A DNA stretch of 64,000 bases from Burkholderiales bacterium (GCA_040902335.1 JBBDXL010000179.1:4775-68774), one strand, 5' to 3'; positions 8,387 through 31,518 are shown, numbered from the stretch's first letter. The notes: generated by a model not told the origin, from the sequence alone. Numbers and translations are program-made.

Positions 8387-10945
<2,559 letters not shown>

Positions 10946-11549: not shown

Positions 11550-11641
11550 TTACATAAACATATAACTCTTGTATCCATAAACACTAGACTCTTGTGATGA
11601 TATGCAATAAACTCTTGTAACCGTAAACATCTAACTCTTGT
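11550..11641 (+). repeat. Four tandem 23-bp direct repeats (consensus approx nnnnATAAACAnnTAnACTCTTGT) ending on the Fic start codon
   Basis: The ACTCTTGT core occurs at 11565, 11588, 11611 and 11634, an exact 23-bp phase. The region is strongly AT-rich against the ~68% GC background. Confidence 0.85.
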
Positions 11642-15594: not shown

Positions 15595-15721
15595 CGGGGG
15601 CACTTACGTTCCTCCGGAAGCACTGTGCAGGCCCGGCTGTTTCGTGGGGACTGGGCTTCGCGACGCTCGGGCTCGGGGGCATGACTGCCTTACTCTGCGC
15701 CCTGGCGCTGCGCCGTTTTTG

Positions 15722-16465
15722 ATGGATTTCCATCCTTCTCGCTACGTGCGCTTCGTGGCCGGCGGCCGGCAGGTAGGCTGGCTGCGGCCGGAGCTCGCGG
15801 CGCGCCTCGCCGCCTGGCCGGCGGTGTTCGACGCGAACCCCGATGCGGTCACCCTGTTGCAAAAGGACGCGCTGGCGCCGGTCGTCGAGCAGCTGGCACA
15901 GGAAGGCTTCATCCGGGGCTGGCGCAGCGAGCGCTACCGCATTTCGGAGCTCTTCGAGATCGAGCGCGCCGCCGCGCGGCCCTTCGGGCTCACCACCTAC
16001 GCCGTGCACGTCAATGGAATTTCCTTCGATAATAAAAACATGTGGGTCGCGAGGCGCAGCACGGAGAAGCCGATCGACCCGGGCATGCTCGACAACCTGG
16101 TCGGCGGCGGCTTGACGGCGGGACTTTCGGTCGAGGAAGTGCTGGTGAAAGAAGCGTGGGAGGAAGCCGGTATCGGCGCCGAGCTGGCACGCAGCGCGAC
16201 GCGCGGCGGTACCGTGCGCATCCTGCGCGAGGTGCCCGAGGGCGTGCAGTCGGAGGTGATCTACGTCTACGACCTCGCGCTGCCCGACGACTTCGAGCCG
16301 CGGAACCAGGACGGAGAAGTTTCGGAGTTCAGGCAGTTGTCTTTTGAAGCAGTTCTCAACTGCCAGGAATTCACGTTCGAAGCGGCGCTAGTCGCGATGG
16401 ACTATTTCAGCCGACGAAGCGAACCCCCCGGGTCTGGGCGCAGAGTCGTGGATCCGTCGACTTGA
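15722..16465 (+). CDS. NUDIX hydrolase family protein
   Basis: From ATG 15722: MDFHPSRYVRFVAGG... with a Nudix-box-like GGGLTAGLSVEEVLVKEAWEEAGI. Confidence 0.8.
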   Translation: MDFHPSRYVRFVAGGRQVGWLRPELAARLAAWPAVFDANPDAVTLLQKDALAPVVEQLAQEGFIRGWRSERYRISELFEIERAAARPFGLTTYAVHVNGISFDNKNMWVARRSTEKPIDPGMLDNLVGGGLTAGLSVEEVLVKEAWEEAGIGAELARSATRGGTVRILREVPEGVQSEVIYVYDLALPDDFEPRNQDGEVSEFRQLSFEAVLNCQEFTFEAALVAMDYFSRRSEPPGSGRRVVDPST

Positions 16466-17408
16466 CGGTGACCGGCCGGCCGTCCAGGACTTCGCGGCAG
16501 CGCTCGAGCGTCTCCGCTTCCAGGCGCGCCATCGCCTCGTAGCTGTAGAAGCCGAGGTGCGGCGAGAGGATCACGTTGTCCATGGCGTAGAGCGGGCTCA
16601 GGGGATGCCCGGAGCGCGCGAGCGGCTCGCTCGAGAAGACATCGAGCGCTGCGCCCGCGATGCGCCTTTCCTGCAACGCGCGCAGCAGCGCCATCTCGTC
16701 CACGATCGCTCCCCGCGACACATTGACCAGGAACGCCGTCGGCTTCATGCAGCACAGCGCCCCCTCTCCGATCAGATGCCGCGTCTCGGGCGTGAGCACG
16801 CAGTGCACTGAGACGAAATCGCACTCCGCGATCATGGTCCGGAGGTCTGTTCGCAGATCGGCGTGCGCGCTCTGCGACACATGCGGGTCGCAGGCAAGCA
16901 CGCGCATCCGGAAGGCCGCGGCCATGCGCGCGAAGCTTGAGCCGATCCGCCCCAGCCCGACGAGACCGACCGTCTTGCCCGCGAGATCGCTCGCCAGCCA
17001 TTCTCGCGCCGGCCAGATCCAGCCTTCGCGGTCCATCGCGCGCTGGATCGGCTTCAGCTTTTTCGCGAGCGCGATGAGCAGCGCAAAGGCGCCTTCGGCG
17101 ACGGTTTCCTCGGCGTACTCGGGCACGTTGACCACCGGGATGCCGCGGCTGCGCGCGGCCGCGATGTCGATCGCGTCAATGCCGACGCCGTACTTGACGA
17201 TGCCCTTGAGCCTCGCCGCGGCCTCGATGGCGCGACGCGTGACCGGCGTGTAGCACATAAGCAGCAATTCGGCTTCGCGCAATTCGCGCAGCAGCTCGTC
17301 TTCGCTGACGCCGCCAGGCAGAAGCACGAGCTCGTGGCCAGCCGCGCGCAGCGCCGAGTCGACGCGCGGCACCTCGAGCTCGCGGTCGGTGCGAACTATC
17401 CTTGCCAC
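16407..17408 (-). CDS. D-isomer-specific 2-hydroxyacid dehydrogenase family protein
   Basis: 333 aa with [16 protein letters not shown] motif and a C-terminal ...NVILSPHLG catalytic His region. Confidence 0.9.
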
Positions 17409-19714
17409 GGTGCCTTGAGCGCGGCCTTCGCCGCCACCACGCGGCCCGAGACCTCGATCTCGTAGCGGCCGGCAAGAACGCCTTGCGCGGTCTCGGGCTT
17501 CGCCGAGTAAACGAATCCCATCGCCACCATGGTGCCGAGCGAGGCGCTGTAGCCCACCGAGGTCAGCTCGCCCACCGGCTTGTCGTCGCGCAGGATCGGC
17601 TCTCCGCCCCAGGCGAACAGTTCCGTCGCGGGGAAGGTGAACATCAGCAGCCGCTTCGCCAGCCCCGGCTTCGGGGGTTCGCGCTTGTCGCGCCTTACCG
17701 CAAACTCAAGCCCGGCCTCGTAAGGCGTGCAGTCCGGGGACAGCTCGGCGCCGAAGGCGCGCCGGCCGGCCTCGATGCGCAGTGCGTCGAGCGCGTAGTA
17801 GCCGCAATCCTTCAACCCGAGGTCGCTGCCGGCATCCCACAACCGGTCGTAGAGGCTCGCCGCATCCTCCACCGGCACATAGAGCTCCCAGCCCGGTCCG
17901 CCGGCATAGGATGCGGGCACGGCTCGCGCCTCGTCTTTCAATGTCAGTCTTGAAAGCAGAGTGCCGGCGTTCGGCCCGAGCACCGAGATCACCGACCAGG
18001 CGTCGCTCACGTCTTCGACGGTGACGTTTTCGTTGCTCCTTATTTGACGGCGAATCCACGCCGCATCGCGCACCGGCTGCGCCGAGCCCGTGACTATGAA
18101 GAACGCATCGTCGCCCCAGCGCTGCACGGTGACGTCGCTCTCGTAGCCGCCCTTGCGGTTGAGCATCGGTGTATAGGTAAGGCTGCCAATGCGGTTCGCG
18201 CAGACCCGCTCGAGCAGGGTCTGCGCGTCCCGCCCGCGCACGAGAAGCTTGCCGAACGAAGTCTGGTCGAACACGCCCGCCGCCCCGCGCACCGCGCGCT
18301 GCTCGGCAATGCAGGCGTCGAGCCAGTTCGGCCGGCCGAGGGTGTATTGAAGTTTTTCGCCAGTAACGGAAAACCAGTTGGCGCGTTCCCAGCCGAACTT
18401 TGATCCGAACAAGGCGCCTTTCGCCTTCAAGCGCCCGTAGAGCGGCGAGACGCGCAGCGGCCGGCCCGATTCCAGCTCGTGGCGCGGCCAGCGCATCGCG
18501 TAATGCAGGCCGAGCGTCTCCACGGTACGCTCCTTGAGCCATTTCGAATCCGCGGCGAACGCGCCGAAGCGCCGGATATCCACCTCGAACAGGTCCATCG
18601 GTGCCTCGCCGCCCGCGATCCACTCGGCAAGCAGCTTCCCCGCGCCGCCGGCGTTGGCGATCCCCGCGGAGTTGAAGCCGGCGGCGACGAAGTAGCTCCT
18701 GAGCTCCGGTGCCTCGCCCAGGATGAAGTTGCCGTCGGGGGTGAAGCTCTCCGGGCCGTTGAGCAGCAGCTTCACGCCCGCGGTCTCGAGCGCAGGCACG
18801 CGATGCATCGCCGCCTCCATCAACGGCTGGAACTGCTCCCAGTCCTCGGGCAGCAGCTGGAACTCGAACTTCTCCGGTATGCCGCCCATCCCCCAGGGCT
18901 TGGCCACCGGCTCGAAGCCGCCCATGACGAGACCGCCGACCTCCTCCTTGAAATAGATGAAGCCGTCGGGATCGCGCATCACCGGCAGCATCGGATGCAC
19001 GCCCGCGATCGGCCCGGTGACGAGGTAGAAGTGCTCGGCCGAGTGCAGCGGGATGTTGACGCCGCTTTGCGCGCCGAGCGCCCGCGCCCATTGCCCGGCG
19101 CAATTGACCAGTACCGAACATTGAACGTCACCCGCCGTGGTCGCTACACCCGTTAGGGCATTGTTATGCAAACGAACGCCCGTCACGCGCACGCCTTCGT
19201 GGATCTTCACGCCCAGATTGCGCGCCCCCTTGGCGAGGCTTTGCGCCAGGTCCGCCGGGTTTGCCTTGCCGTCGGCGGGAAACCAGAGCGCGCCCTGCAG
19301 GTCGTCGATGCGCAGCAGTGGCCATTTCTCCAGCGCTTCGCGCGGCGTGAGCAGCTCGACCTCGATGCCGAAGCTGCGCGCCATCGCCGCCTGGCGCCGG
19401 AACACGATCCAGCGCTCGGGCGTTCGCGCGACATTCACGCTGCCGCAGCGCTTCCATCCGGTGGCGAGGCCGGTTTCCTGCTCCAACGTCGCGTAAAGCT
19501 GCGTGCCGTACTGGCTCATGCGCGTCATCGAGCGGTTCGGCCGCATCTGGCCGACCAGCCCCGCCGCGTGCCAGGTGGTGCCGCAGGTGAGGCGGCCCTG
19601 GTCGAGGAGGACGATGTCGCGCTTGCCGAGCTTCGCCAGGTGGTAGGCGACGCTTATGCCGACGATGCCGCCGCCGATGACGACGATTGCGGCATGCGAA
19701 GGGAGCCCGGTCAT
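17396..19714 (-). CDS. Dimethylglycine/sarcosine-dehydrogenase-like fusion: FAD-dependent oxidoreductase (DAO) domain plus GcvT-type folate-binding aminomethyltransferase domain
   Basis: From ATG 19714: [31 protein letters not shown]...[12 protein letters not shown] (FAD dinucleotide fold), then ...[13 protein letters not shown]...[10 protein letters not shown]...[11 protein letters not shown] (GcvT-like). The part of track ORF 17396..20113 upstream of 19714 is junk. ATGA overlap with the EamA stop. Confidence 0.88.
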
Positions 19715-20568
19715 GCCTTGAGCGCGATCACGCCGGCCGCGACCGCGAGCGCACCGGCGATGCGGCGTGCGCCGAAGGGTTCCTTCAGCAGCCAGGCGCC
19801 GAGCAGCGCCGCGAAGATCACCGAGGTTTCGCGCAGCGCGGCAATCGCGGCGATCGGCGCGCGCGTCATCGCCCACAGGGCGATGCCGTAGGCCACCACC
19901 GAGCCGGCGCCACCCACGAGACCGCGCACCCAGTAGCGGCCCGCGTAATGCAAAAGCTCGCCGCGGCGCCCCCAGGCGACCATCAGCACGTAGGGAAAGC
20001 CGTCGAGAAAAAAGATCCACAGCGCGTAGCTCTCCGCACGACCCGAGAGCCTGACGCCGGCGCCGTCCACGAGGGTATAGGTAGCGATGATGACGGCATT
20101 CGCGAGCGCCCAAGCGGTCGCGCGGCGGTTATGCAGCCACGAGCCACCGCCGGCGAAGCTGATGCCGATGACGCCGGCGCTGATGAGCATGATCCCCGCC
20201 CACATCCACGCACCCGGGATCTCGCCCAGCATCAGCACCCCGAAACCGGCCACCAGAAGCGGGGCGATGCCGCGCATCAGAGGATAGCCGTGCGAGAGAT
20301 CTCCGGCGCGGTAGGTCGCCACCAGCGCGACGAAATAGCCGATATGGATCGCCACCGACGCCGCGAGGTAGGGCCAGCTCTCCGGCGCCGGGAGCGGAAC
20401 GAAAAGCAGAAACGGGACTGCAACCAGGGCGCCGCCGCCCACCACGCCGGCGAGGTCGAGCGCCGGGTCGCTGCTGCCCTTGATCATCGCGTTCCACGCT
20501 GCGTGGAGCAGCGCGGCGCCGAGCACGGCGAGCGTGACCGGAGCCGACAGCCCGGCCGCTTCGCTCAT
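19711..20568 (-). CDS. EamA/DMT-family transporter
   Basis: 285 aa, about 10 hydrophobic segments, two EamA repeats. Confidence 0.85.
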
Positions 20569-21875
20569 GCAGCGATCGCGGCCTCGACGATGTCGAGCGC
20601 GCGGTCGAGCTCTTCTTCCCGGATGATGAGCGGGGGCGCGAGCACCAGCACGCGACCCTGCCCGACCTTGAACGAGAGCCCCTGCGAGAGGCAGCGGTAC
20701 ATGACCTCCTCGGCCAGCGCCGCGTCGTTCAGCTCGATCCCGAGCAGCAGGCCGATGCCGCGCACGTCGGCGACTGCAGGATGCCTCATCTCCCGTAACC
20801 GGGCGAGGGCTCGTTCACCGAGGCGCGTTGCGCGTGCAAGCAGATCCTCGGATTCGACGACCTCGAGCGCGGCAAGTGCCGCGGCGCAGCCGACCGGGCT
20901 CTTCTCGTGCGTGTAGTGGCCGAGCGCGCGCTCGCCCGCGATATCGAGGCCGGCGCGCGCGACGAGCGCCGCCATCGGAAACACGCCCCCGCCGAGGCCT
21001 TTCCCCAGCACCACCATGTCGGGAACGATGCCGTAGCGCTCGAAAGCGAACATCGTTCCGGTACGGCCAAGGCCCACCGCGATCTCGTCGAGGACGAGAA
21101 GCGCGCCGTGACGGTCGCAGGCCGCGCGCAGCTTCTCGTAGTAATCGGGCGGCGGCACCTGCACGTCGGTCGAGCGCACCGTTTCCACCACCACCGCCGC
21201 GACGTCCTCCTCCTTGCCGAGCACGTACTCGACGTAGTCGGCGCAGCGCGCGTTGCAGGCGCCGTTGCAGCCGAAATGGCAGTTGCGCGGATCGCAGGGC
21301 TGCACGTGCTCGGTGCCGGACAGGAGCGGCCCGATGTCGCGGCGAAACAGAGCTTCACCGCCGAGCGAGATCGCGTCCAGGGAGGCGCCGTGGAACGAGT
21401 CCCACATCGAAAGCGTCTTGTGCCGGCCGGTGGCGAGGCGCGCGAGCTTGAGCGCCATGCCGATCGCCTCGGTGCCGCCGGGCGCGAATAGGACCTTCCC
21501 CAGATCGCCGGGCGCAAGGCGTGCGAGCCTGCGCGCAAGGGCGACGGCGGTCTCGTTGGTGTAGCGGCGCGGCGAGAAGGGAAGCGTATCGAGCGCGCGC
21601 TTCACCGCTTCGATCACGCGCGGATGGCCGTGGCCGACCTGGTGCACGCTGTTGCCGTGGAAATCCATCACCCGGCGGCCTTCCAGGTCCTCGAGCCAGA
21701 TTCCCGAGGCCGACTTGAGCGCGCTCAGGCAGGGCGTGGACAGCGACTGGTGCAGGAAATAGCGCGCGTCCTCGGCGAGCAGCGCCCGGGTGGCGGGACC
21801 GAGCTTGTCCGCTTGCCATTGTCCGCGCCGCGGCGAAAGATTGACGTCGCCCTCCGCGGACCGGTCCCTAGGCAT
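20565..21875 (-). CDS. Class-III (omega) PLP aminotransferase-fold enzyme; position suggests a PbfA-type enzyme
   Basis: 436 aa: ...DFHGNSVHQVGHGHPRV..., DEIAVGLGRTGTMFAFE.., GKGLGGG.FPMAA. It sits between phnX and the exporter in the AEP locus. The PbfA assignment is inference from context only. Confidence 0.85.
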   Translation of the reverse strand: MPRDRSAEGDVNLSPRRGQWQADKLGPATRALLAEDARYFLHQSLSTPCLSALKSASGIWLEDLEGRRVMDFHGNSVHQVGHGHPRVIEAVKRALDTLPFSPRRYTNETAVALARRLARLAPGDLGKVLFAPGGTEAIGMALKLARLATGRHKTLSMWDSFHGASLDAISLGGEALFRRDIGPLLSGTEHVQPCDPRNCHFGCNGACNARCADYVEYVLGKEEDVAAVVVETVRSTDVQVPPPDYYEKLRAACDRHGALLVLDEIAVGLGRTGTMFAFERYGIVPDMVVLGKGLGGGVFPMAALVARAGLDIAGERALGHYTHEKSPVGCAAALAALEVVESEDLLARATRLGERALARLREMRHPAVADVRGIGLLLGIELNDAALAEEVMYRCLSQGLSFKVGQGRVLVLAPPLIIREEELDRALDIVEAAIAA

Positions 21876-22242
21876 GCTTTTGGTTGGCCGTGCCGTTGAC
21901 GAATTCCTCGCGCAGGCGCGTCGGCGCGAGCGCCCCCGCCTGCTCGAGGATCGGGTAGGCGACCGAGCAGATGTGCGAGTTGATGCGCTTGAAGTCGTTG
22001 ATGATGTCGAGGTGAAGGGAGCTCGTCTCGATCGACTGCACCGTCTGCCAGGCGAGGCGGTTCAGGTGCGCGTCGCCGTACTGGCGCTCGAGGTTGCGGA
22101 ACTCGACCTTGGTCCCGAGCAGCATCTGCGCGCTCTTCAGGTCGCCGTTGAGGAATACGTTCAGCCCCAGGCGCAGGTTTGCGACCAGGCGCCCCCAAAC
22201 GAGCAGCGCGATTCCCGAGAGGATGCTGACCAGCGTGTGCAT
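21868..22242 (-). pseudogene. Na/Pi-cotransporter (YjbB/NptA-like) C-terminal PhoU-like fragment, 124 aa
   Basis: ..SIETSSLHLDIINDFKRINSHICSVAYPILE.. is the characteristic C-terminal region of ~550-aa Na/Pi cotransporter family proteins. The whole membrane domain is absent. It may still be translated as a stand-alone PhoU-like protein. Confidence 0.55.
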
Positions 22243-22261
22243 CAGGTTCTTGCCTTTGGCG

Positions 22262-23092
22262 TCAGGCCGCTTCCCCGCGTCGGATGCGCGCCTGAATGTC
22301 GTCGATGCAGGGCATGATATCCGCGATGGTATCCACTACATAGTGTGCACCGCATTGCCCCATGCGTGTGCGGGCGCGCTCGCGCTTCACCCGCTGCTCG
22401 GCTTCCGCTAACGCCTGCCACTGCTTGAGCGTCAATCCCACCTCGTTGCCGCTGACCGCGAGCCCGATGGTCCACATTCCGGCGTTCAGGCCCTCCTCGA
22501 CGCCGGGAACGGTGTCGTCGATCTTGACGCAGGCCTGCACCGTGCTCACGCGGAGATTGATCACGTTCTGCAGGCACATATAGGGATAGGGGCGCCCGGC
22601 GGGCACGTCGGCCGCGCAGACCGTGGCGTCCGGCTGGTAGCCCTGGCGCTTCGCGTCTGCGAGATTGATCTTCATCATTTCGGTGAGATAGCCGGTGGTC
22701 GAGCCGATCTTGATGCCGCGCGCGCGCAGCTCCGCGACCGCCTCCAGCGTGCCCGGAATGAGGGCCGAATAGTTGGACAGGCACTCGAGCTGCAGCGGCA
22801 CGAAATCGGCGAACATCGCGCTCACGTCGTCGTCGTCAGGTGTCCGCCCGTGCGCCTCCTGCCAGCGCCGGCGCACCGAGTCGAGCTCGGTGATGCGCTG
22901 GATGTGCACGCGCTTGTGCGCTCCCATGGGCGCGCGCGCCTCCTCGATGGTGATCGGCACCTGCTTGCGCCGGAATACCTCCACGAACACCACTGCCGGC
23001 GCCATGCAGCCGAAGTCCATGGTGGTTCCGGCCCAGTCGAGCAGCACCGCCTCGATCGGCCCGCGGTAGCTGCGCTTATAGCTGAAGTTCAT
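22262..23092 (-). CDS. phnX: Phosphonoacetaldehyde hydrolase (phosphonatase)
   Basis: 276 aa. AVLLDWAGTTMDFGCMAP is the HAD motif I with the phosphonatase-type context. Strong SD GGGGAGGG. Confidence 0.92.
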   Translation of the reverse strand: MNFSYKRSYRGPIEAVLLDWAGTTMDFGCMAPAVVFVEVFRRKQVPITIEEARAPMGAHKRVHIQRITELDSVRRRWQEAHGRTPDDDDVSAMFADFVPLQLECLSNYSALIPGTLEAVAELRARGIKIGSTTGYLTEMMKINLADAKRQGYQPDATVCAADVPAGRPYPYMCLQNVINLRVSTVQACVKIDDTVPGVEEGLNAGMWTIGLAVSGNEVGLTLKQWQALAEAEQRVKRERARTRMGQCGAHYVVDTIADIMPCIDDIQARIRRGEAA

Positions 23093-23155
23093 TCACCCTC
23101 CCCCGCGAGTTAAGTGTATCGTATGTCGCTTGTGGTCCACCAAGGGGAGGGAGTC

Positions 23156-24178
23156 ATGAATAGCTTTCGTTTTGCCCTTATCGCGGCCGCTCTGCTGGCC
23201 GCCGCAGGCACCGGGACGGCGCACGCGAAGACCGACCTGCTCGTCTACACGGCGGTCGAGGCGGACGAGCTCGCCAAGTTCAAGGGCGCGTTCGAAAAGG
23301 CGAACCCCGATATCGAGATCAAATGGGTGCGTGACTCGACCGGCATCGTCACCGCCAAGTTGCTTGCAGAGAAAGCCAACCCGCAGGCCGACATCGTCTG
23401 GGGTCACGCGGCAACGAGCTTGCTGCAGTTGGTGGCCGAGGGTTATTTCCAGCCTTACGCGCCGAAGGGCGTGGAAAAGCTCAGTCCCAAGTTCGTGGAT
23501 CAGCAGCACAAGCCGCCGCTGTGGGTAGGCCAGCGCGCCTATGCCGCGTCGGTGTGCTACAACACCGTCGAGGGCAAGAAGAAGAATCTGCCGGTCCCGA
23601 CATCGTGGCAGGATTTGACGAAGCCCGTTTACAAGGGCAGCGTCGTCATGCCCAATCCGAATTCCTCGGGTACCGGCTTCCTCGACGTCTCGAGCTGGAT
23701 ACAGATCTGGGGTGAGCAGAAGGCCTGGAAGTTCATGGACGGATTGCATGAAAACATCGCGTGGTACACGCACTCCGGATCGAAGCCCTGCAAGCAGGCG
23801 GCGGCGGGCGAGATTCCGATCGGCGTGTCGTTCGATTATCGCGTGGTGAAGTCGATCGAGGAGGGGGCCCCGCTGAAGCTCATCCTCCCGAAGGAAGGCC
23901 TCGGCTGGGAGCTGGAAGCTTTTGCCATCGTCAAGAACACGAACAAGCTCGACGCAGCGCGCAGGCTCGCGGACTGGACGATCACGCCCGAGGCGATGAA
24001 GCTTCATGCCCCCGGTTACTCGATGGTCGCGCTTCCCGGTGTGCCCAACCCGCTCAAGGATTTCCCGAAGCTCGAGGACAAGATGATCAACAACGACTTC
24101 GCGTGGGCCGGCACCAACCGCGAGCGCATCCTGAAGGAGTGGCAGAGGCGCTACGACGCGAAGTCGGAGAAGAAGTAA
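23156..24178 (+). CDS. 2-aminoethylphosphonate-type ABC transporter, periplasmic substrate-binding protein (PhnS2-like)
   Basis: From ATG 23156: MNSFRFALIAAALLAAAGTGTAHA signal peptide, then a Fe3+/AEP-family SBP fold. SD GGGGAGGGAG. Confidence 0.88.
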   Translation: MNSFRFALIAAALLAAAGTGTAHAKTDLLVYTAVEADELAKFKGAFEKANPDIEIKWVRDSTGIVTAKLLAEKANPQADIVWGHAATSLLQLVAEGYFQPYAPKGVEKLSPKFVDQQHKPPLWVGQRAYAASVCYNTVEGKKKNLPVPTSWQDLTKPVYKGSVVMPNPNSSGTGFLDVSSWIQIWGEQKAWKFMDGLHENIAWYTHSGSKPCKQAAAGEIPIGVSFDYRVVKSIEEGAPLKLILPKEGLGWELEAFAIVKNTNKLDAARRLADWTITPEAMKLHAPGYSMVALPGVPNPLKDFPKLEDKMINNDFAWAGTNRERILKEWQRRYDAKSEKK

Positions 24179-24222
24179 CGCGGCCGATACGGTTCGGCGG
24201 GGCCCTTGTTTCCAGCGGCGCC

Positions 24223-25326
24223 ATGGTCATTGAACGCGACACGTCGCCGGGAGCGCCGTACCTGCGGATCGCGGGCCTCACGAAGACGTTCGGCGCCTTC
24301 ACGGCGCTGAAGGACATCTCGCTCGAGGTCTATCAGAGCGAATTCATCTGTTGCCTCGGGCCGTCGGGCTGCGGCAAGACCACATTGCTGCGCTGTATCG
24401 CCGGGCTCGACATCCAGACGAGCGGCCGCGTCGAGCAGGCGGGCCGGGACGTCTCGGGGCTGCCGCCCTCGGAGCGCGATTTCGGCATCGTGTTCCAGTC
24501 CTACGCCTTGTTTCCGAACTTGAGCGTCTTCAAGAACATTGCCTACGGGCTCGAGAACCGCAGGCTCGGCAAGGCCGAGGTCAGGCGGCGGGTGAGAGAG
24601 TTGCTGGAGCTGGTCGGTATGCCGGAGGAGGTGCAGAAGTACCCGGCGCAGCTCTCCGGTGGACAGCAGCAGCGCGTGGCGCTCGTGCGCGCGCTCGCGC
24701 TCTCGCCGGGGCTGCTGTTGCTCGACGAGCCGTTGTCGGCGCTGGATGCGCGGGTGCGGGTGCACCTGCGCCACGAGGTGCGAGGGCTGCAAAGGCGCCT
24801 TGGCGTGACCACGATCATGGTCACCCATGACCAGGAAGAGGCGCTGACGATGGCCGACCGCATCGTGGTGATGAACCGGGGTGTGATCGAGCAGGTCGGT
24901 AGCCCGATCGAGATCTACCGCGAACCGGCGACCGCGTTCGTGGCTGATTTCGTCGGCACGATGAATTTCATGCCTGCCGTCGTTGCCGGCCCGAACAGGG
25001 TCCGGCTGGGCCGGATCGAGCTCGAATGTGCAGGCGGCCTCGACGGGGCGATCCCGGGGGCGCGGGTCACGCTCGCCCTGCGCCCGGAGGACGTGGCCGT
25101 GCGCAACGTGGCGAGCGACGGGGTCAACGGCTTCGCGGCAAGGATCGTGGACATGGAATTTCTCGGCTCCTTCTACCGCGTCCAACTCGCGGCCGACGAC
25201 ATCGACAAGAGCCGAATCACGGCCGATCTCTCGATCAACGATGTGCGCGATCTGTCGCTCGCGCGGGACATGACCATCGCGGTCGCCCTGCCGCGGGAAC
25301 GGATTCGCGTTTTCGCCGGCGGCTAG
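24223..25326 (+). CDS. AEP-type ABC transporter ATP-binding protein (PhnT2-like)
   Basis: From ATG 24223: Walker A GPSGCGKTT, signature LSGGQQQRVAL, Walker B LLLLDEP. Confidence 0.9.
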   Translation: MVIERDTSPGAPYLRIAGLTKTFGAFTALKDISLEVYQSEFICCLGPSGCGKTTLLRCIAGLDIQTSGRVEQAGRDVSGLPPSERDFGIVFQSYALFPNLSVFKNIAYGLENRRLGKAEVRRRVRELLELVGMPEEVQKYPAQLSGGQQQRVALVRALALSPGLLLLDEPLSALDARVRVHLRHEVRGLQRRLGVTTIMVTHDQEEALTMADRIVVMNRGVIEQVGSPIEIYREPATAFVADFVGTMNFMPAVVAGPNRVRLGRIELECAGGLDGAIPGARVTLALRPEDVAVRNVASDGVNGFAARIVDMEFLGSFYRVQLAADDIDKSRITADLSINDVRDLSLARDMTIAVALPRERIRVFAGG

Positions 25327-25337
25327 GCGCCGCACGC

Positions 25338-27044
25338 ATGGCCAACGCCACAGCCGCTCGAGCCGTTCTACCCAGGATTCGCGCCTCCCTGAGCCTCGAC
25401 GACTGGGTCATGCGCGCGGCCGTGGTGGTCCTCGGCCTGTGGCTGCTGGCCGCAGTCATCGTGCCCCTCTACGTGCTGCTGTCCAAGAGTTTTCAGGCGA
25501 AGGGCGGCAGCTTCATCGGTCTTGCGAACTACGTCGAGTATTTCTCCACGCCGGCGCTGTTTTACTCCATCTACAACAGCCTGACGATCGCCGTCATCAG
25601 TACGGTGATCACGATCGCACTGGCGTTCGTTTTCGCCTATGCCCTGACCCGCAGCTGCATGCCGGGCAAGGCGTTCTTCCGCGGCGCCGCCTTCGTCCCG
25701 ATCCTCGCGCCCTCGCTGCTCCCGGGGATCTCCTTCGTCTATCTCTTCGGCAATCAGGGCATGATCAAGGAGCTGCTGATGGGGCACTCGATCTACGGTC
25801 CCATCGGCATCGTCATGGGCGAGGTGTTCTGGACCTTTCCGCATGCGCTGATCATCATCACCACGGCGCTGTCGCTCTCCGATTCCCGGTTGTACGAGGC
25901 GGCCGTGGCTTTGCGCGCGAGCAGGCTTCGGGCCTTCTTCACGGTGACTTTGCCGGGGGCCAAGTACGGTCTGCTCAGCGCCTGCTCGGTGGTGTTCACG
26001 CTGGTGATCACCGACTTCGGCGTGCCGAAGGTGATCGGCGGCCAGTACAACGTGCTCGCCGTCGACGTCTACAAGCAGGTGATCGGCCAGCAAAACTTCG
26101 AGATGGGAGCGGTCGTGGGCATGGTGCTGCTGCTGCCGGCCGTCATCGCCTTCATCGCCGACCGGCTGGTGCAGCGCAAGCAGATTGCGCTGCTATCCGC
26201 GCGCGCCGTGCCCTACGAGCCAAAGCCGAACAAGGCGCTCGACAGCTCCATGTTCATCTTCTGCACCGTCGTCAGCATCCTGATCCTCGGCATCCTCGCG
26301 GCCGCGGCCTTTGCCTCGCTGGTCAAGCTCTGGCCGTACAACCTGACGCTCTCGCTCAAGCACTACCAGTTCGACTTGATGGACGGCGGCAGCTGGGGTG
26401 CGTACTACAACAGTCTCAAGATGGCGCTCTGGACGGCGGTGGTGGGAACGGCCGTGATCTTCAGCGGCGCCTATCTCGTCGAGAAGACCAAGGGGTTCGG
26501 CCGTACACGGTCGTTCGTGCAGTTCATGGCGATCATACCGCTCGCCGTGCCCGGCATCGTGCTCGGACTTTCCTACATCTTCTTCTTCAACGATCCGGCG
26601 AACCCCTTTCACTTCATCTACGGAACGATGGCGATCCTCGTGATCTGCACCATCGTGCACTTCTATACCGTCGCCCATCTCACGGCGGTCACGGCATTGA
26701 AGCAGCTGGATCCGGAGTTCGAGGCGGTCTCGGCCTCGCTCAAGGTGCCGTTCTACAAGACCTTCGCCCGCGTCACCGTGCCCGTGTGCGTACCGGCGAT
26801 CCTGAGCATCTCCATCTATCTGTTCCTCAACGCCATGACCACGGTGTCGGCCGTGGTCTTTCTGTACTCGCCGGACACGGCGCTCGCCTCGGTAGCCGTG
26901 CTGAACATGGACGACGCGGGCGACATCGCCCCGGCGGCGGCCATGGCGATGATGATCGTCTATACCTCGGCCGGCGTGCGTGTGCTGCACGCGCTCGCCA
27001 CGCGCGGCATCGCCCGCAGGACGCAGCGCTGGCGCACGCGCTAG
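25338..27044 (+). CDS. AEP-type ABC transporter fused double permease (PhnU2-like)
   Basis: From ATG 25338: 568 aa with two tandem permease modules, about 12 TM segments. Confidence 0.88.
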
Positions 27045-27063
27045 CTTCAGGGAGCCCCGTGAA

Positions 27064-28203
27064 ATGAAACAACCCATCCTGCTCACCCCCGGCCCGCTCA
27101 CCACCTCGAGCGCGACCAAGCTCGCCATGATGCGCGACTGGGGCTCGCGCGATTCGGGCTTCATCGAGCTCAACCGTCTGGTCCGCGACATGCTGTTGGA
27201 TGTCGTTCATGGAAAGGAAATTCACGTCTGCGTGCCGCTCCAGGGCAGCGGCACCTTCGCCGTCGAGGCGGCGCTCGGCACGCTGGTGCCGCGCGAGGGC
27301 CATGTGCTGGTGCCGCTCAACGGCGCCTACTGCAGGCGCATCGCGCGCATCTGCGCCATCCTCGGCCGGCGCACCACTACTCTCGATTTTCAGGAGGATG
27401 AACCTGTGAAAGCCGCGGACATCGACGCCATCCTGTCCCGCGACCCCTCGATCACGCACGTTGCCCTGGTGCACTGCGAGACCAGCACCGGGGTTCTCAA
27501 TCCTCTAGAAGAGATCGCCGAAAGTGTCGCCCGCCACAAACGCAGCTTGATCGTCGACGCCATGAGCTCGTTCGCGGCGCTCGAGATCGACGCGCGCAAG
27601 ACCCCGTTCGACGCGCTGGTGGCGGCCTCCGGCAAATGCCTCGAAGGCCCGCCGGGAATGGGCTTCGCGCTTGCCCGCCGCGCGGCGCTCGAGAAATGCG
27701 CCGGAAATTCGCCCTCGCTGGTGCTCGACCTCCACGACCAGTGGGTCAACATGGAGAAGACCGCGCAGTGGCGCTTTACGCCGCCGACCGTGGTGCTCGC
27801 CGCGCTGCACGCCGCGCTCGAGCAGTTCGTCGCCGAAGGCGGCCAGCCCGCGCGCCTCGCGCGCTACCGCAGGAACTGCGAGGTGCTGATCGAGGGCATG
27901 ACGCGTCTCGGCTTCAAGCCGTTCCTCGAGCCGCGCCACCAGGCGCCGGTCATCGTGACGTTCCACGCCCCCGCCGATCCGAGCTACGATTTCCAGCGCT
28001 TCTACGACCGCGTGCGCGAGAAGGGCTTCGTGCTCTACCCCGGAAAGCTCACCCAGGTCGACACGCTGCGCGTGGGCTGCATCGGCGCGATCGACGAGAA
28101 CGTCCTGCGCGCCGCGGTGCACGCGATCGCCGACACGCTCGCCGAGCAGGGCATCCGGCTCCATGAATCTGGTTCTGTTCGATCTCGACAATACGCTCCT
28201 TAG
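27064..28203 (+). CDS. phnW: 2-aminoethylphosphonate--pyruvate transaminase
   Basis: From ATG 27064: [15 protein letters not shown]... class-V aminotransferase with the characteristic PhnW N-terminus (..MRDWGSRD..) and ..[13 protein letters not shown] (PLP Lys). Confidence 0.92.
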
Positions 28204-28819
28204 CGGCGACACCGATTTCGAGTGGCTCGCTTTCCTTGTCGAGCAAGGGGTTCTTTCCAGTTCCGACCAGGAAGCAAATGCCGAAATGGATCACCGCTAC
28301 CGCAGCGGCGACGCCGGCGCGCTCGAGTATGTACGCTTCTACCTGGGCTTCTATGCGCCCCACGGCATGGCTGCGCTCCTCGCCTGGCGCGACAAGTTCT
28401 TCCGCACCAGAATCGAGCGGCGAATTTCGCGCGCGGCGCGAGCGCTGGTGGAGTCGCATCGCAACGACCTCGTCGCGATCGTCACCGCGACCAACCGCTT
28501 CCTCACCGAGCCGATCGCCGCGGCGTTCGGCGTCGAGCACCTCATCGCCACCGAGCCCGAGATGGTCGCGGGCCGGTTCACGGGCGAGGTCGCCGGGACG
28601 CCGTGCATGCGCGAGGGCAAGATCGAGCGGCTCGAAGCGTGGCTTGCCTCCCGCGGCAGCTCGCTCGCCGATTACGCCGAGACCTGGTTCTACAGCGATT
28701 CGATCAACGACCTGCCGCTGCTCGAGCGCGTGACGCACCCGGTGGCCGTGGATGCCGACTCAAAGCTCGAGCGGCTCGCGCGCGAGCGGGGGTGGACGAT
28801 ATTGCACCTGCCCCGCTGA
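28163..28819 (+). CDS. HAD-IB family hydrolase/phosphatase (SerB-like)
   Basis: 218 aa with motif [10 protein letters not shown] and C-terminal ..[11 protein letters not shown]. 41-nt overlap with phnW. Confidence 0.85.
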
Positions 28820-29115: not shown

Positions 29116-30483
29116 ATGAGTGAAACGGAAGCTGGGCCGAGGGGAATGCTTCAGCCCGAGCAGCTGCGTACGCTGGTCGGGAAAGGCGAGATCGAAACCG
29201 TCGTCGTCGGCTTCACCGACCACTACGGCCGCCTGCTGGGCAAGCGCTTCGACGCCGAGTTTTTCGTCGAGGAGATCTGCAGCCAGGGGGCGCACGCCTG
29301 CGACTATCTGCTGACGGTCGACATGGAGATGGATCCGGTGCCGGGGTATCGCTTCGCCAACTGGGAGCTCGGCTACGGCGACTTTCATCTGGTGCCCGAC
29401 CTGGGCACGCTGCGCCTCGCGAGCTGGCTCGACAAAAGCGCGCTGGTGCTCTGCGACGTGAAAAGTGAAAAGATGCACGAGTATGTGGCCGTGGCGCCGC
29501 GCTCGATCCTGCGCCGGCAAATCGACGCCGCAAGCGCGCGGGGATACACAGCCTTCGCCGCCTCCGAGCTCGAGCACTACCTCTTCCGCACGAGCTACCG
29601 CGAGGCGGCCCAGCGCGACTACCGTGACCTCGAGCCCGCGGGCTGGTACCTGGAGGACTATCATATCCTGCAGGGCACGCGCACCGAAAGCTTCCACGCC
29701 GCGGCGCGCCGCCACCTGAAGCTCTCGGGCGTGCCGGTCGAGAACTCGAAAGGAGAATGGGGCGCGGGGCAGCACGAGCTGAACGTGCGCTATGCCAGCG
29801 TCCTGGAAATGGCCGACCGCCACGTGGTGTTCAAGCAATGCCTCAAGGAGCTCGCGGAGGCGGCAGGCATGAGCCTCACCTTCATGGCCAAGTTCGCCTC
29901 CGACCGGGCAGGCTCGAGCTGCCACATCCACTTCAGCCTCCGGCGCGATGGGAAGAACGTCTTTGAGAAAGGCGGCGACCTTTTCCGCTGGTTCCTCGCG
30001 GGCTGGATGGCACACGTGCCCGACGTCATGGTGTTCTACGCGCCGACCGTCAATTCGTACAAGCGCTACGTGGACGCCTCCTGGGCGCCGACGCGGCTCG
30101 CCTGGAGCTACGACAACCGCACGGCGGGCTTCCGCGTCGTGGGCGACGGCCCGGGCCTGCGCATCGAATGCCGCATTCCCGGCGCCGACTGCAATCCCTA
30201 CCTCGCTTTCTCCGCCGCGCTCGCCTCGGGCCTTGACGGCATCGCCGGCCGGCTCGAGCCGCCCGCATGCTTCGTCGGCGACGTCTACGCGGCGAAAAGC
30301 CTGCCGCGGGTGCCGCATACGCTCAGCGAAGCAGCAGATCTTTTTTCAAACAGTGATTTTACGAAGCGCGCGTTCGGCGCGGAGGTGGTGGAGCACTACA
30401 CGCATTTCTTTCGCACCGAAGCAGCCGCCTTCGACAAGGCGGTCACCGATTGGGAGCGCAAGCGCTACTTCGAAAGAATATGA
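29116..30483 (+). CDS. Glutamine-synthetase-family enzyme, gamma-glutamyl-amine synthetase type (PuuA/GlnA3/GlnA4-like)
   Basis: 455 aa: ..EWGAGQHELNVRY.. and ..NSYKRY..WAPT...WSYDNRTAGFRV.. GS catalytic motifs. No AT-adenylylation context. Confidence 0.88.
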   Translation: MSETEAGPRGMLQPEQLRTLVGKGEIETVVVGFTDHYGRLLGKRFDAEFFVEEICSQGAHACDYLLTVDMEMDPVPGYRFANWELGYGDFHLVPDLGTLRLASWLDKSALVLCDVKSEKMHEYVAVAPRSILRRQIDAASARGYTAFAASELEHYLFRTSYREAAQRDYRDLEPAGWYLEDYHILQGTRTESFHAAARRHLKLSGVPVENSKGEWGAGQHELNVRYASVLEMADRHVVFKQCLKELAEAAGMSLTFMAKFASDRAGSSCHIHFSLRRDGKNVFEKGGDLFRWFLAGWMAHVPDVMVFYAPTVNSYKRYVDASWAPTRLAWSYDNRTAGFRVVGDGPGLRIECRIPGADCNPYLAFSAALASGLDGIAGRLEPPACFVGDVYAAKSLPRVPHTLSEAADLFSNSDFTKRAFGAEVVEHYTHFFRTEAAAFDKAVTDWERKRYFERI

Positions 30484-31253: not shown

Positions 31254-31518
31254 GATATCTCGAAGACTTTGCGGTGGGTCAGACCTTCGGCTCCGGCCGG
31301 CTGCGCGTCGACAAACAGCGGGTCATGGCCTTCGCCGCCGAATTCGCCCCGGCGACGAGTTGCACCTCGACATCGAAGTGATGGAGGTGCGGCCGTCGAA
31401 GTCGCGCCCGGAGCAGGGCTTGATCAAGGTCAAGACCACGACGCTCAATCAGGACGGCGAGGCGGTACAGGTCACCATCGGGAATCTGGTCGTGCCATGC
31501 CGCCCGGTGAAAGAATGA
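31250..31518 (+). pseudogene. MaoC-like (R)-hydratase/dehydratase gene with internal deletion and frameshift
   Basis: The N-terminal MRYLEDFAVGQTFGSGRLRVDKQRVMAFAAEF.. runs into a stop at 31381. The C-terminal ..GDELHLDIEVMEVRPSKSRPEQGLIKVKTTTLNQDGEAVQVTIGNLVVPCRPVKE* continues in another frame. The central hot-dog core (I estimate ~70 aa) is missing. ATGA overlaps are kept at both ends. Confidence 0.7.

Follow-up and report, generated by a model that had tools for sequence, protein, structure and literature searches.

A two-armed AEP-utilization locus in an uncultured Burkholderiales bacterium with a DMGDH-like fusion flavoenzyme as candidate N-methyl-AEP demethylase

Organization of the AEP locus

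The window, i.e. the whole stretch of 64,000 nt analyzed here, derives from an uncultured Burkholderiales bacterium and harbors, at 15.6–28.8 kb, a locus for utilizing the natural phosphonate 2-aminoethylphosphonate (AEP), arranged in two divergent arms (Table 1). Its source is described as a soil bacterium. The plus arm consists of phnS2T2U2-phnW, while the minus arm comprises phnX, a Na/Pi-transporter remnant, pbfA, a DMT permease gene, and the genes for a 772-aa DAO+GcvT fusion protein (hereafter the fusion) and a 2-hydroxyacid dehydrogenase. All genes named in an earlier, sequence-only reading were recovered with unchanged coordinates, and the core phnW/phnX pathway and AEP ABC importer it had recognized were confirmed, with PhnX, PhnW, and PhnS2/T2/U2 scoring above their NCBIfam cut-offs. 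PhnW additionally matched a second model (TIGR02326, 473.5 bits; cut-off 400.8), and phnX is 87.5% identical at the DNA level to that of a sibling locus (L009).

Table 1. Features of the AEP locus and its borders (positions relative to the first nucleotide of the window).
Feature	Coordinates	Strand	Evidence
DUF4743+NUDIX hydrolase	15644..16465	+	Pfam PF15916 + PF00293
D-2-hydroxyacid-dehydrogenase-family protein, 333 aa, probable PbfF	16407..17408	-	PF02826 + PF00389
DAO + FAO_M + GCV_T + GCV_T_C fusion, 772 aa, DMGDH-like flavoenzyme, proposed N-methyl-AEP demethylase	17396..19714	-	Pfam
EamA/DMT-family permease, 285 aa	19711..20568	-	PF00892
PbfA, class-III aminotransferase fold	20565..21875	-	NF049939 equivalog, 657.6 bits (cut-off 525)
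Na/Pi cotransporter remnant, 124 codons	21868..22242	-	PhoU domain + TIGR01013 C-terminus matches
PhnX, phosphonoacetaldehyde hydrolase, 276 aa	22262..23092	-	TIGR01422, 347.7 bits (cut-off 220)
Divergent intergenic region, 63 bp	23093..23155		Two Shine-Dalgarno sequences + TGGTCCACCA palindrome
PhnS2 (AepS), AEP ABC-transporter substrate-binding protein	23156..24178	+	TIGR03261, 491.6 bits (cut-off 392.75)
PhnT2 (AepT), ABC ATPase	24223..25326	+	TIGR03265, 522 bits (cut-off 457.7)
PhnU2 (AepU), fused ABC permease	25338..27044	+	TIGR03262, 837.8 bits (cut-off 593.25)
PhnW, AEP:pyruvate aminotransferase, 379 aa	27064..28203	+	NF010006, 555.4 bits (cut-off 296)
HAD-IB hydrolase	28163..28819	+	PF12710; TIGR01490 above cut-off

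The sequence-only reading had phnX directly adjoin the gene for the PLP enzyme. Instead, a 124-codon ORF separates the two, and the 8-nt overlap with the start of pbfA belongs to this ORF. Residues 1–17 of its product align with residues 1–17 (82% identity), and residues 18–124 with residues 451–557 (85%), of an intact 557-aa protein encoded in L001. Judging from this alignment, the ORF is a Na/Pi cotransporter gene after in-frame deletion of approximately codons 18–450, with start and PhoU-like tail retained; intact versions occupy the equivalent position in L001, L005, L006, and L008. Overlaps along the minus arm do exist as proposed, yet measure 8, 4, 4, and 13 nt rather than 4–8 nt, and the fusion gene overlaps start or stop codons of both its operon neighbors.

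At one border, the HAD-IB gene overlaps the phnW 3′ end by 41 nt, a pairing also present in L003; its product scored 252.7 bits against the Pseudomonas-type histidinol-phosphatase model (below the cut-off of 280). At the other, the convergent NUDIX and pbfF-like genes overlap at their 3′ ends. In every clade-A locus read on the downstream side, the NUDIX gene is a neighbor of the fusion gene or of pbfF; in L002 and L003 it is co-directional with, and overlaps, the final operon gene.

Direct reading of the spacer between phnX and the transporter genes found CCCTCCCC...GGGGAGGG as previously described. This spacer lacks the putative PhnR operator of sibling loci, and neither a sigma-70-like promoter nor an Rfam match was called within it. 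No regulator gene lies inside or beside the cluster, and phnR, phnA, and phnY are absent from the entire window. The claim that the usual LysR regulator is missing was hence right about the absence, but a GntR-type PhnR, not a LysR protein, would be expected in this lineage.

PbfA and a probable PbfF

In line with the sequence-only reading, the class-III PLP enzyme qualifies as PbfA by its equivalog score (Table 1), and its full-length identity to the products of the genes that occupy the pbfA position in Vibrio and Azospirillum is 50–56%. The 333-aa protein, by contrast an unexplained extra in that reading, reached no equivalog cut-off in NCBIfam. In the description by Ruffolo et al. (2025; PMC12366243), PbfF belongs to pfam02826, is never found without pbfA, and acts as a racemase of 2-amino-1-hydroxyethylphosphonate (HAEP); Mesorhizobium ciceri is among the species they list with pbfF. 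The window protein shares 61% identity over 334 aa with the product of the M. ciceri gene directly downstream of pbfA, a comparison made with the gene at the pbfF position and not with the characterized M. plurifarium sequence. On the strength of this identity, the putative dehydrogenase is most likely PbfF, an NAD-dependent (S)→(R)-1-hydroxy-2-aminoethylphosphonate racemase. In sibling loci, the PbfF-like gene co-occurs with pbfA or with an HD oxygenase gene.

A DMGDH-like fusion with a remodeled GcvT domain

The fusion has strong Pfam matches to DAO (5.7e-74) and GCV_T (9.5e-63), and reached no NCBIfam equivalog cut-off. Rat and human DMGDH align with its residues 7–745 (E=3e-137), and its closest solved relatives are DMGDH and DMGO. 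Equivalents of H48, H225, Y259, D552, Y651, and E658 of DMGO (dimethylglycine oxidase) are all kept: the histidine that binds FAD covalently, the dyad of His225 and Tyr259, and, at the folate site, Asp552, Tyr651, and Glu658. These features bear out the earlier description of the enzyme as DMGDH-like. Its identity to the characterized single-domain PbfC is only ~30%.

Both domains are under purifying selection (dN/dS of ~0.18 for DAO and ~0.23 for GcvT), and the GcvT domain is present in all full-length orthologues aligned, across the Alpha-/Betaproteobacteria divergence. Within the window's clade, GcvT evolves faster (66–74% identity vs. 80–90% for DAO), carries a 23-residue deletion, and has GELGWE changed to GGPGxE; another 11 residues are missing from the window's subclade, and close relatives differ at the Trp of GWE (W/T/R/Y/A/C). 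In T-proteins, the deleted hairpin presumably carries aromatic residues of the folate pocket. Owing to the two deletions, folate coupling is less certain in this clade, a weaker case than the sequence-only reading assumed. In an AF2 model of the fusion, the GcvT part was confident (pLDDT 75–96) and the substrate pocket poorly modeled.

The neighboring permease does belong to the EamA family as proposed, while its label as an exporter is not established. Its best NCBIfam match, TIGR03340 ('phosphonate utilization associated putative membrane protein'), reached 169 bits (below the cut-off of 288). The permease gene adjoins the fusion gene in every clade-A and clade-B locus with phosphonate genes and enough upstream sequence read, and is its invariant upstream partner in Betaproteobacterial loci.

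Conserved linkage to phosphonate genes

Fusion orthologues form a single clade in a neighbor-joining tree, apart from a 39–43% paralogue. Scoring phnW, phnA, phnY, phnX, pbfA, phnS2/U2, or an HD oxygenase gene at most 10 kb from the orthologue as linkage, 45 of 85 loci from Alpha- and Betaproteobacteria were phosphonate-linked, including all 11 loci of the window's clade for which 2 kb or more of upstream sequence was available. The enzyme is thus encoded next to phosphonate-degradation clusters of at least 45 other bacterial species. Linked taxa were Casimicrobiaceae, Rubrivivax, Mesorhizobium, Aminobacter, Sinorhizobium (pSymB), Shinella, Rhizobium, Roseovarius, Rhodovulum, Variibacter, and one Paraburkholderia subclade. 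The fusion gene is variously an operon member, transcribed divergently from phnW, or located upstream of LysR-NaPi-phnW, and phnW is found in nearly all loci with enough visible context, although not within 10 kb in some sibling loci, e.g. L001. This conserved neighborhood strongly backs the proposed part of the fusion in phosphonate catabolism. No phosphonate-linked locus contained a stand-alone PF01266 ORF of at least 250 aa (PbfB/C/D type); pbfD has been reported from related Mesorhizobium clusters.

By contrast, ~27 species of Paraburkholderia, plus a few others, carry orthologues that have no phosphonate gene at this distance. In genomes of Alphaproteobacteria and Paraburkholderia, the fusion gene is paired with its own DeoR regulator gene and is therefore a separable module. 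This DeoR partner is only 32–36% identical in the unlinked Paraburkholderia subclade vs. 50% in the linked one, suggesting divergence of the unlinked group.

Function of the fusion and competing explanations

To our knowledge, all characterized DAO+GcvT fusions (DMGDH, SarDH, DMGO, and MabO) are N-demethylases. Published work also backs this activity (PMC5082570). On balance, we lean towards a two-armed AEP cluster in which three ancillary enzymes broaden the range of substrates, with the fusion demethylating N-methyl-AEP and PbfF acting as racemase. PhnS2T2U2, PhnW, PhnX, and PbfA, as members of characterized families, import AEP, transaminate it to phosphonoacetaldehyde (PAA), cleave PAA into acetaldehyde and phosphate, and convert (R)-1-hydroxy-AEP to PAA, respectively; PbfF, by orthology, would turn (S)- into (R)-hydroxy-AEP, rendering it usable by PbfA. 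Based on gene context and family chemistry, the function best supported for the fusion is conversion of N-methyl-AEP to AEP by N-demethylation. It would be an amine dehydrogenase or oxidase with covalently bound flavin, of the same type as dimethylglycine dehydrogenase, and would oxidize the N-methyl C–N bond of N-methyl-AEP; N,N-dimethyl-AEP and N-methyl-hydroxy-AEP are further possible substrates. In the GcvT domain, tetrahydrofolate would take up the one-carbon unit, which would otherwise, with folate unbound, leave as formaldehyde, and the remaining primary amine, AEP, would proceed to PhnW. The DMT permease may carry the methylated substrate. If true, methylated phosphonates can enter the AEP pathway through the fusion. 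The sequence-only reading considered such tetrahydrofolate-dependent demethylation undemonstrated, and our literature search likewise found no description of a DAO+GcvT enzyme in phosphonate clusters.

Family chemistry does not fix the regiochemistry, because PbfC, whose nearest characterized relatives are also N-demethylases, cleaves the other C–N bond to yield PAA and methylamine (PMC10590968). Further points that speak against the favored reading are the GcvT deletions and altered motif, the sibling loci with no phnW within 10 kb, the unlinked orthologues, and the separable DeoR-fusion module. A PbfC-like fusion, oxidizing N-methyl-AEP at C2–N directly to these products with GcvT as a structural or vestigial part, would fit PbfC's kinship with MabO, SarDH, and DMGDH, the deletions, altered motif, and faster evolution of GcvT in the window's clade, and the absence of phnW near the fusion gene in L001. 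Ruffolo et al. moreover list 'pbfC' for clusters in which we found only the fusion, which their paper appears to have labeled as such. We nonetheless regard this as unlikely, given the low identity to the 43–46 kDa single-domain PbfC, the retention of GcvT under constraint and of its Asp, Tyr, and Glu, and the near-ubiquity of phnW. Quite improbable, too, is demethylation without folate in the Burkholderiales clade, the remodeled GcvT domain serving merely as a reaction chamber from which formaldehyde is released: DMGDH-type enzymes do turn over in this way without tetrahydrofolate (PMC5082570), and both the lost residues and the variable Trp would agree, but key folate-site residues and purifying selection persist and GcvT is the confident part of the structural model.

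Alternatively, the fusion might be an ordinary sarcosine or dimethylglycine dehydrogenase that acts after C–P cleavage, e.g. on sarcosine or dimethylglycine formed from N-methylated hydroxy-AEP by an HD oxygenase of the PhnZ/TmpB type, or on glycine-betaine catabolites. The catalytic residues shared with DMGDH and DMGO would suit this role, and a PhnZ-type gene (TIGR03276, 225.8 bits; cut-off 214.6) sits directly upstream of the EamA and fusion genes in L003, L004, L011, L015, L017, and L041. The window and most linked loci, however, lack an HD oxygenase, and their hydrolytic routes yield no N-methylglycine; where a second paralogue exists, it is this paralogue rather than a fusion-clade member that adjoins a GbcA-like oxygenase; and PbfC and PbfD do not accept sarcosine, so phosphonate-specific members of the superfamily exist. 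We thus rate this possibility as rather unlikely. Least probable is a hitch-hiker with an unrelated substrate (N-methyltaurine or another methylamine) whose linkage reflects shared genomic-island ancestry. The DeoR-fusion pair of S. meliloti does lie between taurine (tauABC-xsc-pta) and AEP clusters, and the pair stands alone in the unlinked Paraburkholderia species. Yet tau, xsc, and pta genes adjoin the fusion in S. meliloti only, phosphonate linkage is found repeatedly, and differently arranged, in both Alpha- and Betaproteobacteria, and the low DeoR identity points to divergence of the unlinked group.

Comparison with known systems

Next to the fusion and phosphonate genes, L001, Aminobacter, and Shinella have genes for a GbcA-like Rieske oxygenase and for a second DAO+GcvT paralogue. 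In enzyme types and order, this set matches the GbcAB-DMGDH-SarDH route from glycine betaine via dimethylglycine and sarcosine to glycine. At 355–360 bits, below the GbcA cut-off of 670, the Rieske protein is not GbcA itself. Neither gene occurs in the window, and a substrate link of this set to trimethyl-AEP is speculation.

Like PbfF (PMC12366243), the 333-aa protein belongs to pfam02826, and its gene shares an AEP cluster with pbfA. Unlike PbfF, which was reported from Alphaproteobacteria only and usually adjoins pbfA, it stems from a Betaproteobacterium and is encoded two genes away from pbfA; in L004, the PbfF-like gene accompanies an HD oxygenase gene instead.

The fusion has the same four-domain architecture as DMGDH, SarDH, DMGO, and 4-methylaminobutanoate oxidase (the JGI annotation of its relatives), and retains the His for covalent FAD attachment, the His/Tyr dyad, and the folate-site Asp, Tyr, and Glu. 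It differs in forming a separate orthologous clade tied to phosphonate clusters and, in the window's clade, in lacking 23 + 11 GcvT residues; known substrates of these enzymes bear a carboxylate, whereas its presumed substrate would bear a phosphonate.

PbfB, PbfC, and PbfD (Zangelmi et al. 2023; PMC10590968) and the fusion are PF01266 flavoenzymes of phnWX or phnWYA clusters, mutually exclusive in the loci read, and the fusion probably serves the same purpose of letting N-methyl-AEP enter the pathway. Azospirillum PbfC is a distant relative at only ~30% identity, and in contrast to PbfC and PbfD, single-domain proteins of 43–46 kDa that yield PAA and methylamine, the fusion is ~84 kDa in size with a folate domain and has AEP and a one-carbon unit as predicted products. 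It would thus fill the cluster role of the stand-alone PbfB/C/D through demethylation instead of methylamine release.

Organization of the AEP catabolic locus

ORF listing and translation placed two divergent gene strings on either side of a 63-bp spacer (23093..23155), with a G+C content of 64–69% across the locus. Successive genes of the minus-strand string overlap by 8, 4, 4 and 13 nt. All five proteins of the hydrolytic PhnW–PhnX pathway for 2-aminoethylphosphonate (AEP) and of the PhnS2T2U2 transporter surpassed NCBIfam equivalog cut-offs, and their genes are clustered. The sequence-only reading of the locus, i.e. an AEP cluster extended by a class-III PLP enzyme, an FAD/GcvT fusion, an EamA permease and a 2-hydroxyacid dehydrogenase, therefore holds up, apart from minor amendments to overlap lengths and to which genes adjoin. 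The window locus is a bona fide cluster for AEP catabolism. Among its ancillary enzymes, PbfA and the probable PbfF are of kinds already described, while the 772-aa protein (hereafter the fusion) is a third, uncharacterised one that is widely distributed and linked to phosphonate genes by context.

Coordinates of the window cluster and of associated genes in relatives' loci that carry fusion orthologues (L numbers)
Locus	Feature	Coordinates	Strand	Basis
Window	phnS2	23156..24178	+	above NCBIfam equivalog cut-off
Window	phnT2	24223..25326	+	above NCBIfam equivalog cut-off
Window	phnU2	25338..27044	+	above NCBIfam equivalog cut-off
Window	phnW	27064..28203	+	above NCBIfam equivalog cut-off
Window	HAD-IB hydrolase	28163..28819	+	
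Window	phnX	22262..23092	-	above NCBIfam equivalog cut-off
Window	124-codon ORF, Na/Pi cotransporter gene remnant	21868..22242	-	
Window	class-III PLP enzyme (PbfA)	20565..21875	-	NF049939
Window	EamA/DMT permease	19711..20568	-	
Window	772-aa DAO+FAO_M+GCV_T+GCV_T_C fusion	17396..19714	-	Pfam domains
Window	D-2-hydroxyacid-dehydrogenase-family protein	16407..17408	-	PF02826
L001	Rieske oxygenase and DAO+GcvT paralogue	1..2811		
L020	Rieske oxygenase and DAO+GcvT paralogue	3471..8211		
L087	Rieske oxygenase and DAO+GcvT paralogue	17433..21159		
L002	alanine dehydrogenase, just upstream of EamA and fusion	8046..9161		
L007	alanine dehydrogenase, just upstream of EamA and fusion	about 8053		
L009	alanine dehydrogenase, just upstream of EamA and fusion	about 769		
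L020	DeoR-family regulator	8284..9072		
L034	DeoR-family regulator	9117..9911		
L042	DeoR-family regulator	8772..9719	-	
L051	DeoR-family regulator	8930..9712	-	
L084	DeoR-family regulator	11067..11852		

The 124-codon ORF is what remains of a Na/Pi cotransporter gene after an internal, in-frame deletion: its residues 1–17 match residues 1–17 of the intact 557-aa cotransporter of L001 (a Burkholderiales MAG), and its residues 18–124 match residues 451–557. The remnant still overlaps the pbfA start by 8 nt, and an intact cotransporter gene occupies its position in L001, L005, L006 and L008. Truncation by insertion of phnX was considered and rejected in favor of the internal deletion. From 22192 down to 15627 the window is collinear with L001 at 78% DNA identity, and its phnX is 87.5% identical to that of L009. 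The cluster is thus assembled, mosaic-like, from modules that recur in relatives.

The left arm of the relatives' loci usually opens with a GntR-type regulator gene (TIGR03338, phnR_burk; 303.8 bits, cut-off 271.5). A conserved palindrome upstream of phnR in sibling loci, ATTGTTGACAAT (L002, about 3295–3320; also L007, L008, L013 and L019), may be the operator of this regulator. Searches within the window returned no phnR, phnA or phnY, and the 63-bp spacer lacks the ATTGTTGACAAT palindrome, carrying a different one, TGGTCCACCA (23133..23142). L003 is likewise devoid of a GntR-type regulator. A promoter scan from 15.4 to 29.2 kb gave no sigma-70-like sites and an Rfam search of the window cluster no matches.

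The EamA permease had a single NCBIfam match, the phosphonate-associated DMT membrane protein model TIGR03340 (phn_DUF6), at 169.3 bits and thus below the cut-off of 288.15. A partial second EamA-like match, 44% identical to the cluster permease over 175 aa, lies distant from the cluster (57313..57837, +). The HAD-IB hydrolase gene shares 41 nt with the 3′ end of phnW, a pairing also seen in L003, and its product scored just under the Pseudomonas-type histidinol-phosphatase model (252.7 bits vs. a cut-off of 280).

Several features surround the cluster. It is flanked by genes for a glutamine-synthetase-like protein and an aldehyde dehydrogenase (29116..30483 and 31269..32882, both +), and in the downstream flanks of L002 and L003 their counterparts are joined by an Fe-ADH gene, in L003 also by a class-I amidotransferase gene. 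This set resembles gamma-glutamylation genes of amine catabolism, and its synteny appears conserved in the window's lineage. A DUF4743+NUDIX hydrolase gene (window 15644..16465, +; L002 13313..14161; L003 12325..13176) adjoins the fusion or pbfF in all loci of the window clade (clade A, Burkholderiales) for which the downstream flank could be inspected. In the window the two are convergent; in L002 and L003 the hydrolase gene runs in the same direction and overlaps the last operon gene. The hydrolase had no NCBIfam matches; CMP-AEP or another nucleotide-activated phosphonate would be a purely conjectural substrate. Between 10001 and 14000, the G+C content falls to ~0.615, compared to 0.65–0.74 in nearly all of the remaining window; this segment, which contains a Fic/DOC-domain ORF (11640..13193), may have been horizontally acquired.

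PbfA and a predicted PbfF

The class-III PLP enzyme scored 657.6 bits against the PbfA lyase equivalog NF049939 (cut-off, 525), its residues 8–435 aligning to positions 2–440 of the 442 in the model. The gene sits in a hydrolytic AEP cluster, 386 nt downstream from phnX on the same strand. By family membership, PbfA would be the entry point for (R)-1-hydroxy-2-aminoethylphosphonate (R-HAEP), as a lyase yielding phosphonoacetaldehyde (PAA) and ammonia.

PbfF has been defined as a pfam02826 protein of AEP clusters that always also hold pbfA, and was shown to be an NAD-dependent racemase converting (S)- to (R)-1-hydroxy-2-aminoethylphosphonate; no dehydrogenase with a different established function reaches 36% identity to the characterised enzyme (Mesorhizobium plurifarium, CDX32929), and Mesorhizobium ciceri is among the species listed (Ruffolo et al. 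2025, PMC12366243). The 2-hydroxyacid dehydrogenase of the window matched PF02826 (2.6e-56) and stayed under all cut-offs for PGDH, GhrB, LDH and similar enzymes, the best NCBIfam model being PGDH (245 bits vs. 454). Over 334 residues it shares 61% identity with the M. ciceri gene directly downstream of pbfA, at the pbfF position. In the window, the pbfF-like gene and pbfA share one operon; in sibling loci, it accompanies either pbfA or, in L004, a gene for a PhnZ-type HD oxygenase. PhnZ-type HD oxygenases also act on R-HAEP. Most likely, then, the window protein is PbfF, a predicted racemase of S-HAEP to R-HAEP, with which the locus extends a protein reported from Alphaproteobacteria only (PMC12366243) to Betaproteobacteria.

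Domains and conserved residues of the fusion

Four Pfam domains passed their cut-offs in the fusion: DAO (residues 10–365), FAO_M (369–423), GCV_T (425–672) and GCV_T_C (687–766). It reached none of the NCBIfam equivalog cut-offs. Among proteins of solved structure, those closest to it are dimethylglycine dehydrogenase of rat and human (DMGDH; E=3e-137, residues 7–745) and Arthrobacter dimethylglycine oxidase (DMGO); its nearest relatives overall come from uncultured soil Burkholderiales.

To assign residue equivalences, we aligned the fusion to 1PJ5 with HMMER and compared 86 orthologues and paralogues in a MAFFT alignment. The motif TTWHAAG, invariant in the orthologues shown, aligns with DMGO His48 (human DMGDH His91), the site of covalent 8-alpha-FAD attachment, and AEH(F)Y and GFIYFKEE align with the catalytic dyad His225 and Tyr259. 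Equivalents of DMGO Asp552, Tyr651 and Glu658, which we take from the DMGO and T-protein literature to be folate-site residues, are kept as well. In all window-clade members of 75–99% identity, 23 residues immediately preceding the Y-x-G-E-L-G-W-E motif are missing, a hairpin that carries aromatic folate-pocket residues in T-proteins; across the clade this motif has become Y-x-G-G-P-G-x-E (GGPGWE in the window protein), and the window subclade additionally lacks an 11-residue F-I-G-R-E-A-L segment. Pairwise Nei–Gojobori dN/dS among eight clade members was 0.11–0.24 for the DAO half and 0.14–0.33 for the GcvT half (omega ~0.23); selection therefore maintains both halves. AlphaFold2, run on 45 close homologues, gave a model of low overall quality (mean pLDDT 59, pTM 0.44; pLDDT <50 in the DAO substrate region) that was confident over most of the GcvT part.

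The fusion recurs beside phosphonate genes

Using tblastn with the window proteins and the L001 PhnA, PhnY, PhnR and Na/Pi cotransporter, we mapped 85 fusion loci from three long metagenome contigs, 80 species-representative genome loci and two rhizobial megaplasmids. In a neighbor-joining tree, all proteins of 52–99% identity formed one clade, apart from a 39–43% paralogue. At least one core phosphonate gene lies within 10 kb of the fusion in 45 of the 85 loci. Linkage was found in 11/11 window-clade loci having at least 2 kb of upstream sequence, with the order phnA–phnY or phnX, (NaPi), (pbfA, HD oxygenase or alanine dehydrogenase), EamA, fusion, (pbfF), where brackets denote optional genes. 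Six of 10 loci of a Casimicrobiaceae/Rubrivivax group are linked, as are 9/11 of one Paraburkholderia/Pandoraea group and 19/23 of the Alphaproteobacteria, the last including Mesorhizobium, Aminobacter, Sinorhizobium pSymB, Shinella, Rhizobium, Roseovarius, Rhodovulum and Variibacter. No phosphonate gene was seen within 10 kb in a second Paraburkholderia subclade of 27 species, in Aquabacterium or in a handful of others. Recurring in at least three arrangements and in two bacterial classes, the linkage is better explained by a common function than by inherited synteny.

Alphaproteobacterial and Paraburkholderia fusion genes invariably have the gene of a DeoR-family regulator as their neighbor; this regulator is 50% identical between phosphonate-linked Paraburkholderia and Aminobacter and only 32–36% identical in the unlinked Paraburkholderia subclade. 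As members of this family are known to respond to sugar phosphates, a phosphonate would make chemical sense as effector. In S. meliloti, tau, xsc and pta genes adjoin the DeoR–fusion pair; a link to taurine or N-methyltaurine was rejected, as these genes are absent from all other loci.

The fusion is distinct from PbfC

PbfB, PbfC and PbfD were defined as PF01266 enzymes of AEP clusters; purified PbfC and PbfD measure 43–46 kDa (Fig. S9 therein) and oxidise N-methyl-AEP to PAA and methylamine (Zangelmi et al. 2023, PMC10590968). The fusion shares with them a recurrent siting in AEP degradation clusters, but PbfC and PbfD are single-domain proteins, whereas the fusion comprises 772 aa with a C-terminal GcvT part. 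For instance, the pbfC of Azospirillum sp. B510, located between phnX and pbfA on plasmid pAB510a, encodes a DAO-only protein of ~415 aa with 29.6–29.8% identity to the DAO half of the fusion over ~400 aa. On this ~30% identity and the different architecture, we rejected the fusion as an orthologue or clade member of PbfC, the one member of the PbfB/C/D trio used for comparison. None of the 85 fusion loci contained a stand-alone PF01266 ORF of at least 250 aa.

A 'pbfC' gene is nevertheless listed for M. ciceri, Shinella zoogloeoides, Rhodovulum euryhalinum and other clusters (Ruffolo et al., PMC12366243). In the loci of these three species (L034, L087 and L053, respectively), the sole PF01266 gene encodes a fusion of ~820 aa, so the fusion gene had probably been seen already and lumped with pbfC, and the label in these clusters is probably a mis-assignment. 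In the literature searched, the latest item being a September 2026 paper by this group, we found no discussion of the folate domain and no test of the fusion; searches for the S. meliloti locus tags, 'PbfE' and a GcvT/folate link to phosphonates gave nothing relevant.

A candidate AEP-regenerating demethylase

Invertebrate lipids and glycans commonly contain N-methylated aminophosphonates, which PhnW cannot use. To our knowledge, PbfB, PbfC and PbfD are their only known rescuers, discarding the nitrogen as methylamine. Family membership establishes a core route in which PhnS2T2U2 take up AEP, PhnW transaminates it to PAA, PhnX hydrolyses PAA, and R-HAEP enters via PbfA; by orthology, PbfF would racemise S-HAEP. 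Into this route the fusion would probably feed by oxidising the N-methyl group of N-methyl-AEP, perhaps also of dimethyl-AEP or N-methyl-HAEP, passing the one-carbon unit to tetrahydrofolate and returning the primary amine to PhnW. This demethylase role, drawn from gene context and family chemistry, fits the folate domain being kept under selection, the presence of phnW wherever enough context is visible, and the alanine dehydrogenase of some sibling clusters. The latter is bona fide (TIGR00518, 480 bits; cut-off, 392) and would recycle the alanine formed by PhnW to pyruvate and ammonia. The fusion is a DMGDH-family enzyme that probably acts on a new substrate class, standing in for PbfB/C/D with another reaction.

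The main rival to demethylation is cleavage of the other C–N bond of N-methyl-AEP. PbfC cleaves this bond, a precedent for kinship to demethylases not fixing regiochemistry, and the GcvT deletions of the window clade make the folate argument less secure for the window enzyme in particular; the selection on the GcvT half speaks for demethylation. Alternatively, the substrate might be a carboxylate, e.g. sarcosine or dimethylglycine formed downstream of an HD oxygenase. Such a substrate would fit the six loci carrying an HD oxygenase gene, but not the window or most other loci, and the gene context of the fusion favors a phosphonate over dimethylglycine or sarcosine.

If confirmed, an AEP-regenerating demethylase, whether or not folate captures the methyl carbon, would bring a new reaction to phosphonate catabolism and, if folate is used, would link the latter to one-carbon metabolism. 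It would also assign a first function to a clade of 'FAD-dependent oxidoreductase / GcvT family' proteins that is both large and well delimited and has a member encoded on S. meliloti pSymB, and would correct the apparent mislabelling as pbfC. As the substrates of PbfC and PbfD and coupled assays are already published, the prediction is directly testable.

Parallels with glycine-betaine catabolism

In L001, three Aminobacter genomes and Shinella, a GbcA-like Rieske oxygenase gene and a gene for the 39–43% DAO+GcvT paralogue lie right beside the fusion and phosphonate genes; Aminobacter adds a Fer2 reductase gene. The Rieske protein most resembles the glycine-betaine monooxygenase GbcA but scored 355–360 bits against the GbcA model NF058607, below the cut-off of 670. 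The window contains no Rieske oxygenase, second paralogue or Fer2 reductase. Speculatively, this set suggests a stepwise demethylation of trimethyl-AEP. The Rieske oxygenase would convert 2-(trimethylammonio)ethylphosphonate to N,N-dimethyl-AEP, the paralogue would convert the latter to N-methyl-AEP, and the fusion would yield AEP, with the one-carbon units of the last two steps entering folate metabolism and AEP proceeding via PhnW and PhnX or via PhnW, PhnY and PhnA. We regard it as unlikely that the fusion is the last enzyme of such a complete route for methylated aminophosphonates, of which the window would keep only the final step. Were it true, it would constitute a third route for trimethyl-AEP, beside TmpAB, and would occur widely among Alpha- and Betaproteobacteria of soil and rhizosphere. 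As a set, the Rieske oxygenase, paralogue and fusion of these relatives mirror the enzymes that take betaine through dimethylglycine and sarcosine to glycine.
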